Assembly: GCA_037442085.1 (NCBI GenBank)
Contig: JBBIQY010000002.1
Location: 6,583-70,582 of the forward strand
DNA from: Anaerolineae bacterium
GTDB taxonomy: Bacteria > Chloroflexota > Anaerolineae > Anaerolineales > UBA6663
Length of the DNA: 64,000 nucleotides
Reading direction: 5' to 3'
In this document: positions 1 through 7,312 of the stretch, in pieces
Layout: every line of letters begins with the position of its first letter
How positions within the stretch are numbered: position 1 is the stretch's first letter
Program-made: the position numbers and the translations under genes
Notes under the pieces: model-generated
Told to the model about the DNA's origin: nothing
Seen by the model: only the letters and a program-made list of their open reading frames with translations
Databases searched by the model: none

Positions 1-986
1 AGCGCGACGGCCTGGGCGGGACGCCCATCGCCGAAAGCTACGCCGCGCTCACGCACGGCTTCCGCGACGCGGAAGAAGCGCTGGGCGAGATGATCCGGGC
101 CGTCACCCAGAATCCCAACGTGCAGGTCCGCCTCGGGTCGGAGGTCGTCGCCGCCGAAGGCAGCGCGGGCGATTTTAAGGTCACCCTCACCAAAGGCGGC
201 AATGGCGCGGCCGAGGTCGTCAACGTGGGAGCCGTCATCATCGCCACCGGTTTCCAGCACTTCGACCCGGGACGCGAGACGCAGATGTACGGCTATTACG
301 AGTATGACGACGTGATCACGCTCGCCGATGCCGAGGCGATGCTCAAGCAGCGCAAATTCGTCAAGCCGTCTAACGGACAGACCCCCGAGCGCGTGTGTTT
401 CATCCAGTGCGTCGGCTCGCGCGACCGACAGATTGGGAACGAGTTCTGTTCCAAGGTGTGCTGCGGCATCTCGTCCAAGCAGGCCATCGAGGTGCGTCAG
501 CAGTTGCCGAACTGCAAGGTCTTTATCTTCTACATTGATATGCGCATGTACGGCTACTGGGAGAACGAAATTTACTGGCCGGCGCAGGAGCAGTATCACG
601 TCCAATACGTCAAGGGCATCATCACCGAGATCATCCGCAAGGGCGACCGGCTGCTAGTGCGCGGCGAGGACACGACGATGGGCCGCCCGATGGAAGTGCC
701 GATGGATGTGGTGGTGCTGGCGGTGGGGATGGAACCGAGCCGCGGCACGAAGGACGTCGCCAAAATCTTTGGGCTCAGGCAGAACAAGTACAACTTCATT
801 GACGTGCCGCACGAGTCGCTTGACCCTACGGCGACCTCGGTCCCCGGCATCTTCGTCGCGGGCGCGGCCGCCGGGCCGAAAGACCTTGACGACTCGCTGG
901 GGATGGCCGGCGCGGCGGCGGCCAAAGCGGTGGCGCTGGTACATAAACTTCGAACTCCAAACTCCAAATTACCAAACGCCGTTTGA
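1..986 (+). CDS. hdrA: Heterodisulfide reductase subunit A-like flavoprotein (sHdrA-like), 5'-truncated at window edge
   Basis: Frame open from nt 3 with no stop. Carries HdrA-type motifs FIQCVGSRDR, CSKVCCG and PGIFVAGAAAGPKD. Followed by Hdr/ETF partner genes. Confidence 0.85.
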   Translation, partial: RDGLGGTPIAESYAALTHGFRDAEEALGEMIRAVTQNPNVQVRLGSEVVAAEGSAGDFKVTLTKGGNGAAEVVNVGAVIIATGFQHFDPGRETQMYGYYEYDDVITLADAEAMLKQRKFVKPSNGQTPERVCFIQCVGSRDRQIGNEFCSKVCCGISSKQAIEVRQQLPNCKVFIFYIDMRMYGYWENEIYWPAQEQYHVQYVKGIITEIIRKGDRLLVRGEDTTMGRPMEVPMDVVVLAVGMEPSRGTKDVAKIFGLRQNKYNFIDVPHESLDPTATSVPGIFVAGAAAGPKDLDDSLGMAGAAAAKAVALVHKLRTPNSKLPNAV

Positions 987-1028
987 ATGTTGGGAATTTG
1001 AGATTTGGAGTTTGAGATTTGGAGTTCG
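947..1028 (+). repeat. Heptamer-array hairpin, family A (CCAAACT array / loop / AGTTTGG array), copy 1
   Basis: acttcgaactccaaactccaaatt ... atttggagtttgagatttggagttcg. The left arm encodes the last codons of hdrA, and the stop codon at 984-986 lies between the arms. Confidence 0.8.
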
Positions 1029-1077
1029 CAGCTTGCTCACAGGCCAGGTCGTAGATACAGAAACCGCCCGAGAGTTC

Positions 1078-5108: not shown

Positions 5109-5180
5109 TTTCAAAATTCAAACTCCAAACCTCAAAACTCAAATTGAAGTTTGAAGTTTGGAGTTCGGAGTTTGGAGTTC
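5109..5180 (+). repeat. Heptamer-array hairpin, family A, copy 4
   Basis: tttcaaaattcaaactccaaacctcaaaactcaaa / ttgaagtttgaagtttggagttcggagtttggagttc. It ends 6 nt before the GTG at 5186. Confidence 0.85.
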
Positions 5181-5185
5181 ATCTC

Positions 5186-7312
5186 GTGCTGACCCTCGCC
5201 GAAAGAATCATCTTCCTCCTCATGCTCGTCGGCTTCGGCGGATTCACCGCGTGGGGTTTCTTCAATCTTTACCGCATTGTCCGGCGCGGGCGGCCCGCCC
5301 AATCTCCAATCTCTGATCTTCGATCTTTTATTCCGCGGGCCATCAGGGTTCTGCTCGAAATCGGCCTCCAAAAACCCATTTACAAATCCCGTCCTATCCT
5401 CACCACCTTTCATGCCTTCATCTTCTTCGGCTTCTCGTACTATTTCCTCGTCAACGTCAATGATGTGCTGGAGGGGTTCATCCAAGGCTACGATACCGCC
5501 CGGATCAGCTCCGGCCTGCTTGGCCTGATGAATCTGGTCGCCGATGTGCTCAGCCTCGGCGTGCTCATCGGCGTGGCCGTCTTCCTGGTGCGGCGTTTCA
5601 TCGCCAAAGACAAGCGGCTCGATTTCAACCCCAACGTGCTGCTGCAGCCGGCCGTGACCGGCGGCGTTCAGCGCGACTCGCTGATCGTCGGCGGATTCAT
5701 CCTCTGCCACGTCGGCGCGCGCTTTACCGGCCAGGCGCTGCGGCTGGCCGAGGGGGAGGTCTTCAACCCCATGCAGCCGTTCGCCAGCACCCTGTCGCTG
5801 GCGCTGCGCGGCTGGCCCGATTACACCGTGGCCATTCACGCGGCGTGGTGGCTGGCCGTCGGCCTGATCGTCGTCTTCCTGCCGTATTTCATCATCAGCA
5901 AGCACATCCATCTCATGGTTGCGCCGCTCAACCTTGCGCTGGCAAAACAGACGCCGCGCGGGCGCCTCGACCCGGCACTGCCGAAAGAGGCGCCGCCCGA
6001 AACCGCTCCCGGCGCGGGGACGCTGGCCGACCTCGCCTGGCCGCGCCTGCTCGACGCCTACGCCTGCATCATGTGCAACCGCTGTCAGGACGTGTGCCCG
6101 GCGCACAGCTCGCTGCGGCCCCTCAGCCCGTCGGCGCTGGAGATCAACAAACGCTATTGGCTCAACGCCTATTTCACCGCCTTCGCGGGCGGGGCCGCCT
6201 CGCCGCCGCTCACGGAGTTCGCCATCAGTCCCGAGGCGGTTTGGAGTTGCACCACGTGTTATGCCTGTGTGCGCGTCTGCCCCGTCGGCAACGAGCCGAT
6301 GGCCGACATTGTGGACATCCGCCGCCGATGGGTGAACGACGGCGCGGAACTCGACAGCGGCCTCCAGTCCACGCTGGAGAAGATCGGCAAGACGGGCAAC
6401 TCGTTCGGGCAGGCAGCGCGCAACCGCGCCAAGTGGGCGCAGACCGGCCTCGATTTCAAGATCAAAGACGTTCGCAAAGAGCCGGCCGAGTATTTGTGGT
6501 TCGTCGGCGACTATGCCGCGTTCGACGCGCGCGTGCAAGAGATCACGCGCACGGTGGCGCGCGTCCTACATCACGCCGGCGTGGACTTCGGCATCCTGTA
6601 TGACGCCGAGAGGAACTCGGGCAACGACGTGCGGCGCGTGGGTGAGGAGGGATTGTTCGAGCAGCTCGCCGAGCAGAACATCGCGACGATGAACAAGTGC
6701 AAGTTCGAGCGCGTCATCACCACCGACCCGCACACGCTCAACGCGCTCAGGAACGAATACCCTGACTACGGCGGCAAGTGGGAGACGATCCACTACACCC
6801 GCCTGCTCATGCAATTGATTGACGCCGGCAGACTCCAACTCAAACACAAACTCTCCCACTACCGGGCGACTTTCCATGACCCGTGCTATCTCGGGCGCTA
6901 CAACCAGGGCTTCAATCCGCCCCGCGCGCTGATCCGGGCGACGGGCTGCGACTTCGTCGAGATGCCGCGCAACAAGGAGAACTCGTACTGCTGCGGGGCG
7001 GGCGGCGGCCAAATCTGGATGGGGACGACGCCCGAAGGCGAGCGCCCCGCCGAGCAACGCATCCGTGAGGCGCTCGCCGCTCTCGGCGCTTCGGCCAACG
7101 GCGCAAGCGGCCAAAAACTGCTCTTCGTCGTCGCCTGCCCGAAAGATGTGGTGATGTATACCGATGCCGTCAAAACCACCGGCAGCGAGGGCAAGATCGA
7201 AGTGCGCGACGTGATTCAACTGGTCGCGGAAGCGATGGACTGGAATCACGTAAACACCGAGTTCGCCGAGAACGCTGATTCGGTGAAATCAGCGTCCTCA
7301 GCGAGTCAGTGA
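5186..7312 (+). CDS. Membrane-bound Fe-S oxidoreductase (N-terminal multi-TM domain + 2x[4Fe-4S] + CCG domains), EMO / DsrMK-fusion type putative ETF:menaquinone oxidoreductase
   Basis: Hydrophobic N-terminal ~270 aa. Fe-S motifs CIMCNRCQDVCP and CTTCYACVRVCP. CCG motifs DPCYLGR, YCCGAGGG and ACPKD. The track ORF 4607-7312 overlaps etfA, so GTG 5186 after the hairpin is taken as the start. Confidence 0.8.
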   Translation: MLTLAERIIFLLMLVGFGGFTAWGFFNLYRIVRRGRPAQSPISDLRSFIPRAIRVLLEIGLQKPIYKSRPILTTFHAFIFFGFSYYFLVNVNDVLEGFIQGYDTARISSGLLGLMNLVADVLSLGVLIGVAVFLVRRFIAKDKRLDFNPNVLLQPAVTGGVQRDSLIVGGFILCHVGARFTGQALRLAEGEVFNPMQPFASTLSLALRGWPDYTVAIHAAWWLAVGLIVVFLPYFIISKHIHLMVAPLNLALAKQTPRGRLDPALPKEAPPETAPGAGTLADLAWPRLLDAYACIMCNRCQDVCPAHSSLRPLSPSALEINKRYWLNAYFTAFAGGAASPPLTEFAISPEAVWSCTTCYACVRVCPVGNEPMADIVDIRRRWVNDGAELDSGLQSTLEKIGKTGNSFGQAARNRAKWAQTGLDFKIKDVRKEPAEYLWFVGDYAAFDARVQEITRTVARVLHHAGVDFGILYDAERNSGNDVRRVGEEGLFEQLAEQNIATMNKCKFERVITTDPHTLNALRNEYPDYGGKWETIHYTRLLMQLIDAGRLQLKHKLSHYRATFHDPCYLGRYNQGFNPPRALIRATGCDFVEMPRNKENSYCCGAGGGQIWMGTTPEGERPAEQRIREALAALGASANGASGQKLLFVVACPKDVVMYTDAVKTTGSEGKIEVRDVIQLVAEAMDWNHVNTEFAENADSVKSASSASQ
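5298..5330 (+). repeat. In-CDS heptamer tract (CCAATCT-type, 4 units) inside the EMO gene
   Basis: cccaatctccaatctctgatcttcgatctttta encodes AQSPISDLRSFI. Confidence 0.6.
7271..7310 (+). repeat. Family B element (AACGCTGATT-loop-TCAGCGTCCTCAGCG)
   Basis: aacgctgattcggtgaaatcagcgtcctcagcgagtcagt forms the last codons of the EMO gene. It is near-identical in its ends to 18773-18830. Confidence 0.6.

Follow-up and report, generated by a model that had tools for sequence, protein, structure and literature searches.

Does the gene module at the left end of this stretch of DNA belong to a sulfur-oxidising heterodisulfide reductase-like (sHdr) system, and by which route would the electrons of such a system reach menaquinone? 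The question is raised by positions 1-7312 (+ strand) of 64 kb of DNA from an uncultured Anaerolineales (Chloroflexota) bacterium, a stretch that is referred to here in its full length as the window (GC content 0.60-0.68). A preliminary description had read the module as HdrA, a hypothetical protein, an HdrD-like protein, the two subunits of an electron-transfer flavoprotein (ETF; EtfBA) and a membrane-bound ETF:menaquinone oxidoreductase (EMO), had likened this order to the published type II sHdr arrangement, and had placed the genes for HdrC1 and HdrB1 upstream of the window. Open reading frame (ORF) reading combined with a domain search recovered each of these products in that order and on the + strand, encoded by the six genes shdrA, shdrH, shdrB3, etfB, etfA and emo. 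We conclude, with a probability of roughly 85%, that window 1-7312 holds the distal half of an sHdr operon of type II from an uncultured Anaerolineales bacterium.

The missing upstream genes were found on a public contig of 10.45 kb (Logan; L001), which was retrieved by an exact-sequence look-up of the 428-aa sHdrB3. Over its last 4084 bases L001 agrees with window 1..4084 at every position (0 mismatches), and upstream of shdrA the contig carries, in this order, a histidine kinase gene, a response regulator gene, tusA, dsrE2, dsrE3, shdrC1 and shdrB1. Both HdrC1 and HdrB1 are thus encoded directly before shdrA, as anticipated, and dsrE3 and tusA, for which the preliminary description had advised looking upstream, are present together with dsrE2; the absence of HdrB1C1 would have spoken against a type II cluster. 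TusA carries the CPVP cysteine motif, and the dsrE2-type gene is well supported (PF13686, 3.9e-48); the further DsrE gene after it was called dsrE3 in the broad sense, subtypes A, B and C taken together. In the literature, type II sHdr is defined operationally as shdrC1B1AHB3 and etfAB within one syntenic cluster, together with emo (PMC11094781). Once the identical L001 is joined to the window, this is the content of the locus, with C1 and B1 on L001 and A, H, B3, etfB, etfA and emo in the window, and the linked lbpA, lipoate-assembly and TusA/DsrE genes that mark a type II cluster are present as well. The proposed match to the type II arrangement therefore holds. The two-component pair beside tusA (L001 96-2543) is made up of a histidine kinase of the HisKA_3 type and a response regulator of the NarL/LuxR type, and such a system adjoins tusA, in either orientation, in most related type II clusters. 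This suggests two-component control of the cluster, unlike the ArsR-type sHdrR of the type I system of Hyphomicrobium denitrificans.

The gene at the edge of the window, shdrA (3..986, +), encodes residues 35-361 of a 361-aa FAD/[4Fe-4S] flavoprotein; 327 of the 361 residues thus lie inside the window, the N-terminal 34 codons lie upstream of its left end, and the full gene is found at L001 6267..7352. The product contains a pyridine-nucleotide-disulfide-oxidoreductase domain, and its best NCBIfam matches are HdrA models, far below their cut-offs. Its best solved relative is the sHdrA of H. denitrificans (6TJR, 349 aa; E 5.9e-88, 298.7 bits), which aligns from end to end (residues 5-348), whereas the methanogen HdrA chains (640-670 aa) reach at most 211 bits and align only over residues ~107-345. 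Both sHdrA and 6TJR contain the cluster motif CVGSRDRQIG..CSKxCC, and C170, C183, C187 and C188 are invariant (66 homologues), in line with a flavoprotein of ~350 aa with one [4Fe-4S] cluster and without ferredoxin domains. From PDB bit scores, architecture and synteny, sHdrA is predicted to be of the sulfur-oxidiser kind and not of the methanogen type; nothing in these three lines of evidence points to an HdrA of methanogen, Flx-Hdr or Qmo lineage, which the preliminary description had considered incompatible with its proposal. A methanogen-type HdrABC, Flx-Hdr or Qmo complex was considered and rejected, as a sHdrA of 361 aa is too short to hold the inserted or C-terminal ferredoxin domains and the partner genes are absent: no mvh, flxABCD, qmoBC or aprAB genes were found in L001 or the 64-kb window, and domain scans of both were likewise negative for flx, qmo and apr genes and for genes of an acyl-CoA or lactate dehydrogenase. 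The two remaining Hdr-like subunits, encoded on L001, are sHdrC1, a 229-aa two-cubane ferredoxin with 8 Cys that are invariant in related loci, and sHdrB1, a 400-aa HdrB-like protein, also with 8 Cys invariant in related loci (4+4).

The hypothetical protein of the module is sHdrH (1033/1078..1833, +), the gene for which always lies between shdrA and shdrB3 in related loci. Translation from TTG 1033 would give 266 aa and from ATG 1078 251 aa; the start is probably TTG 1033, since most homologues have 263-290 aa and a GGAG lies 8 nt upstream of it, in the 3' arm of a junction hairpin described below. The 1451 homologues identified at E<=1e-5 are all unnamed and none has a Pfam domain; likewise, sHdrH itself gave no match in Pfam or NCBIfam. 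An AlphaFold 2 model built from 22 homologues is all-helical (pLDDT 71.9), and a Foldseek comparison of this model with the PDB gave no fold match (best E 0.69).

Most informative for the route of the electrons is sHdrB3 (1923..3209, +; 428 aa), which has Pfam Fer4_8/9 and CCG domains and no membrane part. It had been described as a fused FeS/CCG protein taking the place of HdrC2B2, which is borne out by its two cubane motifs and one CCG domain. In 73 homologues, 12 Cys are invariant, namely the 8 cubane ligands as well as C316, C352, C353 and C394, and the first CCG half is devoid of Cys. Judged by these ligands, sHdrB3 is a fused ferredoxin/CCG protein with predicted room for one noncubane cluster only, as published for type II. 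Within the operon it is related to EMO, with which it shares 37% identity over EMO residues 293-683 (E 2e-84), and its bit scores against solved structures were 186 for EtfD (9OJN), 67 for HdrC and 34 for HdrB. The NCBIfam top matches for the FeS/CCG proteins are of the TfrB, LdhH and GlpC types, all far below the cut-offs. An exhaustive search of 1.84 billion cluster representatives returned 1347 relatives of sHdrB3 at E<=1e-30. Among the best 150 of these, 100 have a length of 600-800 aa, and 93 of these 100 display the EMO-like hallmark of at least 3 hydrophobic segments within the first 320 residues; the C-terminal motif in the 100 EMO-length relatives sampled is CPxC in 71 and CPxD in 25. 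sHdrB3 is thus a membrane-less paralogue of EMO. Given this paralogy with the soluble part of EMO, one HdrD-like module probably hands electrons to the ETF and a sister module anchored in the membrane takes them off again. An ETF placed in this way between two sisters, of which the soluble one belongs to the sHdr complex, agrees with the published idea that the electrons of sHdr travel to menaquinone by way of EtfAB and EMO (PMC11094781).

The ETF itself is encoded by etfB (3277..4047, +; small/beta subunit, Pfam ETF 1e-26) and etfA (4149..5108, +; large/alpha, FAD-binding subunit, Pfam ETF and ETF_alpha), the latter without an N-terminal ferredoxin domain. The best solved relative of EtfB is the non-bifurcating ETF of Methylophilus W3A1 (1O94_C, 150 bits), with bifurcating ETFs, in which AMP gives way to a second FAD, reaching at most 89 bits, while EtfA is similar to both kinds of ETF (5OL2_A, 187 bits; 1O94_D, 178 bits). 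EtfBA is thus probably a dedicated, non-bifurcating ETF.

The last gene of the module, emo (5186..7312, +), begins with GTG and encodes a 708-aa candidate ETF:menaquinone oxidoreductase of the EtfD/EMO type. Its hydrophobic N-terminal third (a NarI-like membrane b-haem domain with four to five hydrophobic segments in residues 1-245) is followed by two ferredoxin motifs and one CCG domain, and both the membrane and the soluble part align with EtfD of Mycobacterium smegmatis, which has been solved by cryo-EM (9OJN; E 6.5e-76). The latter protein connects ETF to menaquinone and contains five transmembrane helices, one haem b (His78/His241) and, as iron-sulfur clusters, two cubanes, one noncubane [4Fe-4S] and, at the distal site, one linear [3Fe-4S] (PMC13083937). 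The EMO of Syntrophus aciditrophicus (SaEMO) contains three haems, its distal cluster is of the [4Fe-5S] kind, and the authors of that work underline that the distal site varies; for both EtfD and SaEMO, electron transfer from ETF to (methyl)menaquinone has been shown by experiment. We surveyed the corresponding ligands in 54 sequences, comprising the window protein and 53 homologues from related loci. His75 and His241, which align with the proximal-haem ligands His78/His241 of EtfD, are invariant in all 54, as are all eight Cys of the cubane clusters and C566, C601, C602, C650 and H515 of the proximal noncubane cluster; His174, His217 and His239 are nearly invariant (50-51/54). The position of EtfD Cys712, the sixth proximal ligand, is occupied by an invariant Asp653 within the motif CPKD, and the distal-cluster positions (EtfD Cys503, 538, 581 and 584) correspond to D441, N476, D513 (invariant) and S/T516 in all 54. 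As Cys is absent from all four distal positions, the sHdr-linked EMO is predicted to be unable to bind a Cys-ligated distal cluster. No description of a single-noncubane, Asp-bearing EMO variant was found in the literature searched, which did not cover Kumpel et al. 2024. In comparison with EtfD/EMO, the window protein thus shares the membrane b-haem domain with its aligned proximal-haem His pair, the two cubanes, the proximal noncubane cluster and the adjoining etf pair, but differs in the distal positions without Cys, in the Asp at one proximal Cys position and in the absence of a long disordered C-terminus; furthermore, the electrons would originate from sulfur oxidation here and from beta-oxidation there. 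From this homology and the adjacent etfBA genes we infer that EMO transfers electrons from ETF to menaquinone. Elsewhere in the window, a UbiE/MenG-type methyltransferase is encoded at 24329-25054 (-; PF01209, 7.5e-49), which is consistent with menaquinone biosynthesis in this organism.

The module had been described as followed directly by its presumed lipoyl-carrier machinery. The lbpA and lipoylation genes are indeed located downstream, at a distance of ~1.7 kb, but three small genes (7322..8964) intervene. The first of these, an ORF of 149 aa (7322..7771, +), has kept its place after emo in many related loci and is possibly a winged-helix regulator, going by a weak MarR_2 match (E 0.0035) that is below the cut-off. 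It is followed by a gene for a 'putative cyclase' protein with a twin-arginine translocation (TAT) signal (7811..8641, +; PF04199 Cyclase 3.5e-37 and TAT_signal; kynurenine-formamidase-like), an insertion that among related loci is found only in the closest relative (L002), and by an ORF for a 108-aa Cys/His zinc-ribbon-like protein (8638..8964, +), for which only sub-threshold zinc-finger matches were obtained and which lies between emo and lbpA in most related loci. Three GcvH-like lbpA genes (8992..9429, 9503..9952 and 9970..10410, +; Pfam GCV_H 9e-38, 4e-30 and 2.5e-27) encode proteins in whose translations the lipoyl-lysine motif can be read as ESGK, ESAK and EAAK, respectively. Genes for lipoate assembly continue on the same strand with an sLpl(AB)-type (LplA-type) ligase (10494..11702; LplA-B_cat domain), lipS1 (11729..12622; 235.4 bits against an NCBIfam cut-off of 230), lipS2 (12684..13766; best hit 203.9 bits, below the cut-off of 270) and two further genes with an LplA-like catalytic domain (13816..14826 and ~14829..15566; LplA-B_cat). 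No lipT was found in the window.

Beyond the lipoylation genes, Pfam/NCBIfam domains identify, all on the + strand, an Mrp/ApbC Fe-S carrier (15686..16777), a fused 4Fe-4S-dicluster and NrfD membrane protein (16784..18352), a 962-aa catalytic subunit of the molybdenum bis(pyranopterin guanine dinucleotide) (Mo-bisPGD) kind (18844..21732) and a NarJ/TorD-like chaperone (from 21748, in a gene block that extends to 22716). In 24 related Chloroflexota loci, the FeS-NrfD gene likewise comes after shdr and lbpA in the same orientation, as does the Mo gene where the locus extends far enough. Public annotations give the Mo enzyme generic names only, and its best named NCBIfam matches, PhsA and TtrB, are far below the cut-offs. 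The N-terminus of the catalytic subunit was read directly and contains no twin-arginine (RR) motif and no TAT signal. As a cytoplasmic Mo enzyme encoded beside a system that would produce sulfite, it may be a SoeABC-like sulfite dehydrogenase. It resembles SoeABC in its Mo-bisPGD, FeS and NrfD modules, in a catalytic subunit without TAT signal and in the neighbourhood of sulfur oxidation genes, but its FeS and NrfD parts are fused in one protein, and we regard the assignment as a lead. A short GxxExxY-family-like ORF between the FeS-NrfD and Mo genes (18352-18781, +) is broken by a stop codon in frame and has the appearance of a degraded insertion.

To what extent this cluster is exceptional was assessed by scanning one genome per species for relatives of sHdrB3, which yielded 265 stretches, the best 80 of which were compared as loci. 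Nearly all of these 80 are from Chloroflexota, mostly from metagenome-assembled genomes of Anaerolineales/Anaerolineae, with Ardenticatenaceae, Oscillochloris, Caldilineales and Ktedonobacteraceae as further lineages; the closest among them is 93% identical. In essentially every locus that is long enough, the order tusA-dsrE2-dsrE3-shdrC1-B1-A-H-B3-etfB-etfA-emo-(149-aa ORF)-(108-aa zinc-ribbon ORF)-lbpA-lbpA is kept. The type II cluster is therefore common in Chloroflexota and not rare, and the cluster of the window is an ordinary example of an already known system. This is in line with the report of type II systems in 130 assemblies, mostly from Chloroflexota, Actinobacteriota and Bacillota (PMC11094781), in which type II sHdr is thus widespread. 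With the type II systems described by the Dahl group (Sulfobacillus; Thermomicrobium roseum trd_0160-0142), it has in common the same genes in the same order, tusA and dsrE upstream, lbpA and lipoylation genes downstream, and an sHdrB3 with two cubane clusters and one noncubane cluster only. Nothing essential separates them; local differences are the insertion of the TAT-signal cyclase-family gene, the presence of three lbpA and three LplA-like genes, and heptad hairpins at the gene junctions. The type I system of H. denitrificans (shdrC1B1AHC2B2) shares the sHdrA alignment, the C1, B1 and H subunits and the links to LbpA and TusA/DsrE, but here sHdrC2/B2 is replaced by the fused sHdrB3, and EtfBA and EMO are added, so that the electrons are thought to go to menaquinone.

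Function is deduced throughout: gene content and cofactor ligands were observed in the DNA, and the electron flow follows from the protein families. In the resulting model, TusA together with DsrE2/DsrE3 would pass sulfane sulfur to a cytoplasmic sHdrC1-B1-A-H-B3 complex and lipoylated LbpA, where it would be oxidised to the level of sulfite. The electrons would exit via the two cubane clusters and one noncubane cluster of sHdrB3 to the dedicated, probably non-bifurcating EtfBA, which in turn would be re-oxidised by the membrane EMO along the path noncubane cluster, two cubanes, haem b and menaquinone. The downstream cytoplasmic Mo enzyme with its fused FeS/NrfD anchor would probably oxidise the sulfite and feed the quinone pool, too. 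None of these findings overturns current views. The cluster adds to the evidence for sulfur oxidation by uncultured Anaerolineales, and as a complete example, with regulator, sulfur carriers, sHdr, ETF, EMO, LbpA, lipoylation genes and a candidate sulfite dehydrogenase, it lends itself well to studies of expression and structure. Furthermore, the sHdrB3-EMO paralogy, the missing distal cluster and the invariant Asp at a ligand position provide concrete hypotheses on the exit of the electrons.

Several points weigh against this reading. Fermentative anaerobes are frequent among the Anaerolineales, and the 64-kb window gave no hit for a terminal oxidase gene; the direction of electron flow is therefore an assumption. 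EMO departs from both solved EMOs, with no distal noncubane cluster and Asp for one proximal ligand, so that the docking of ETF could differ. The ETF was typed as probably non-bifurcating from bit scores. sHdrB1 can be aligned with both CCG halves of HdrB, but its Cys number 4+4 in comparison to the 5+5 of methanogens. Finally, type II sHdr is biochemically uncharacterised anywhere (PMC11094781), in agreement with the preliminary description, which had called the variant little characterised.

It should be considered as well that the same machinery could serve persistence or detoxification, oxidising endogenous or organic thiols or persulfides and delivering the electrons to the respiratory chain in starvation, and not lithotrophic growth. 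The homologous 19-gene cluster of T. roseum was the most strongly induced locus (45-fold) upon entry into nutrient-limited stationary phase, for which the authors proposed thiol oxidation (PMC6776052), and a HisKA_3 kinase and NarL-type regulator flank most loci, not a sulfane-sensing ArsR-type repressor. However, the TusA/DsrE carriers and a Mo enzyme that fits sulfite oxidation favour inorganic sulfane sulfur, and we consider a role confined to persistence improbable; it is also not really exclusive of the type II sulfur oxidation proposed here, as the enzymes and the electron path would be the same. Operation in reverse, with menaquinol electrons passing via EMO and ETF to sHdr in order to reduce a disulfide, polysulfide or persulfide, would suit an anaerobe such as the many fermentative members of the Anaerolineales and a window without oxidase genes; moreover, Hdr chemistry can in principle proceed in both directions, and the Syntrophus EMO functions against the potential gradient. 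Nevertheless, LbpA with dedicated lipoylation genes and the TusA/DsrE relay are typical marks of an oxidative route, EMO can be aligned with the EtfD of mycobacteria, a single-haem protein that operates downhill to menaquinone, and every experimentally studied sHdr-LbpA system is oxidative (PMC11094781), which makes the reverse direction very improbable. That the module is an ETF-linked Hdr-like complex of carbon metabolism (of the fatty-acid, lactate, Flx-Hdr or Qmo type) in a coincidental sulfur context could be argued from the role of ETF and EMO/EtfD as the beta-oxidation route to menaquinone in Mycobacterium and Syntrophus and from the TfrB-, LdhH- and GlpC-type matches, distant as they are. 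Yet in essentially all 80 loci the place of etfBA and emo is inside the shdr operon, after shdrB3 and before lbpA; in addition, sHdrA belongs to the 6TJR type, and acyl-CoA dehydrogenase, lactate dehydrogenase, flx, qmoBC and aprAB genes are lacking nearby. A fatty-acid or lactate context had been named beforehand as speaking against a sulfur-oxidising module; as regards gene content, no acyl-CoA or lactate dehydrogenase genes in L001 or the window point to one, and we find a complex of carbon metabolism hardly credible.

The type II operon was further described as packed with junction hairpins. This applies to four of the five junctions within 1..7312 (shdrA>shdrH, shdrB3>etfB, etfB>etfA and etfA>emo; z-scores of -3.6 to -5.5) but not to shdrH>shdrB3, at which no hairpin was found (z +0.38). 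The hairpins are built from inverted arrays of a heptad, of the form (CAAACTY)n - loop - (RAGTTTG)n, and such arrays occupy ten or eleven of the junctions between dsrE2 and slpl(AB). With one mismatch allowed, the heptad motif CAAAYTYCAAAYT has 28 matches in the window, all within 945..11715, compared to 0.15 expected, and 24 in L001, all from the dsrE2>dsrE3 junction onward. The minimum free energy (MFE) of folding ranges from -21 to -31 kcal/mol (z -3.2 to -5.5). At shdrA>shdrH (945..1031, +; MFE -30.6 kcal/mol, z -4.74, with 0/200 shuffles as stable), the 5' arm lies in the last shdrA codons and the 3' arm holds the GGAG before TTG 1033. The hairpin of shdrB3>etfB (3208..3273, +; MFE -21.4 kcal/mol, z -4.74) contains the Shine-Dalgarno (SD) sequence GGGAG in its 3' arm, 5 nt before the ATG, and that of etfA>emo (5110..5179, +; MFE -29.8 kcal/mol, z -3.56) a GGAG, likewise in the 3' arm, 8 nt before GTG 5186. 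The longest array, with 8.3 heptads in the 5' arm (Tandem Repeats Finder: period 7, 8.3 copies), is that of etfB>etfA (4045..4141, +; MFE -31.4 kcal/mol, z -5.45), and a further hairpin of the heptad type is located in the lbpA region (9431..9495, +; z -3.18).

Of the 8 heptad junctions upstream of emo, 7 have the SD sequence (GGAG/GAGG, at a distance of 4-10 nt from the start codon) within the 3' arm, and in the same 7 the stem begins -3 to +6 nt from the upstream stop codon or inside the upstream gene. This stop-to-SD stem geometry is that of hairpin-mediated translational coupling. Each intercistronic hairpin would thus extend from the upstream stop codon and pair the SD of the next gene, with translational coupling and/or stabilisation of the mRNA along the long polycistronic message as the most likely, and a plausible, effect. 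An interpretation as terminators or attenuators was dropped, as there are no U-tails and a scan of 1..16000 revealed no + strand terminator-like site at any junction; the same scan contained no sigma-70-like promoter. An Rfam scan of the whole window returned a tRNA-Gly only and no known RNA family at the junctions.

A role of the hairpins in the operon has to be set against two observations. The summed MFE of ten hairpins is -231.7 kcal/mol for the sense and -259.1 kcal/mol for the antisense strand; the sense strand thus has no folding advantage, and G-U pairs provide no sign that selection acts on the mRNA. An orientation with the C-rich arm first, although constant, is equally uninformative, because an inverted repeat reads alike on both strands. 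Furthermore, a repeat specific to shdr was rejected, as the motif occurs in at least 120 metagenome stretches, 0/120 of which carry an shdr gene, and 37 of those 120 have a GC content of at least 0.55; a regex-based survey of the distance between motif and start codon in these contigs yielded few paired arrays. In view of the parity of the two strands and the same repeat in unrelated high-GC contigs, a selected role in the operon is still only a proposal. Among related loci, the CAAACTY heptad family is limited to the closest relatives, and the same junctions in other lineages contain unrelated hairpins, often of other heptads. The hairpins are therefore real, but they are members of a dispersed, lineage-specific class of repeats and not a property of the shdr module.

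Heptanucleotide repeats between genes have been described before, in cyanobacteria and in Beggiatoaceae (PMC4679880). The arrays described here resemble the cyanobacterial short tandemly repeated repetitive sequences (STRR), the TAACTGA repeats of Beggiatoaceae and long simple sequence repeats in that tandem 7-nt units are found between genes and near start codons, with a lineage-specific unit sequence and a copy number that differs between relatives. They differ in forming inverted pairs, which fold into hairpins of 20-37 bp with the SD carried by the G-rich arm; the TAACTGA repeats of Beggiatoaceae are direct and have little SD character. It is tempting, though the idea is speculative and in our view rather unlikely to be right, to see in the inverted heptad arrays not neutral products of slippage but a modular, evolvable translational device of this Chloroflexota lineage, in which the SD is held in a CTCC/GGAG stem. 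If so, each subunit gene of the operon would be translated only when the preceding one is, changes in the number of heptads would adjust the strength of coupling and the stoichiometry of the subunits, and the unrelated hairpins at the same junctions in other Chloroflexota would indicate that structure, not sequence, is under selection. Further period-7 arrays occur near the Mo-enzyme genes, at 19732-19753 (unit AACTTCA), 21710-21784 (GAAGGAA/TTCAGCC), 22091-22131 (GATTGGA) and 22325-22355 (ATCTGCA); the arms of that at 21710-21784 flank the ATG of the chaperone gene, and the arrays at 22091 and 22325 are inside an ORF.

The remainder of the window encodes very large signalling proteins (26090-33997, -; 35199-45687, +; 45718-47385, +). 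This set includes a 2635-aa histidine kinase with 13-14 GAF domains, HAMP/GAF/Cache proteins, a 1929-aa hybrid kinase with MASE11 and 5 GAF domains, and a pyridoxal phosphate-dependent (PALP) enzyme fused to a receiver domain. The tRNA-Gly (anticodon CCC; 34026-34097, +) is the sole RNA gene according to both ARAGORN and Rfam, and a gene for an IS4/IS5-family DDE transposase (DUF4096 and DDE_Tnp_1) is located at 61962-62741 (+).

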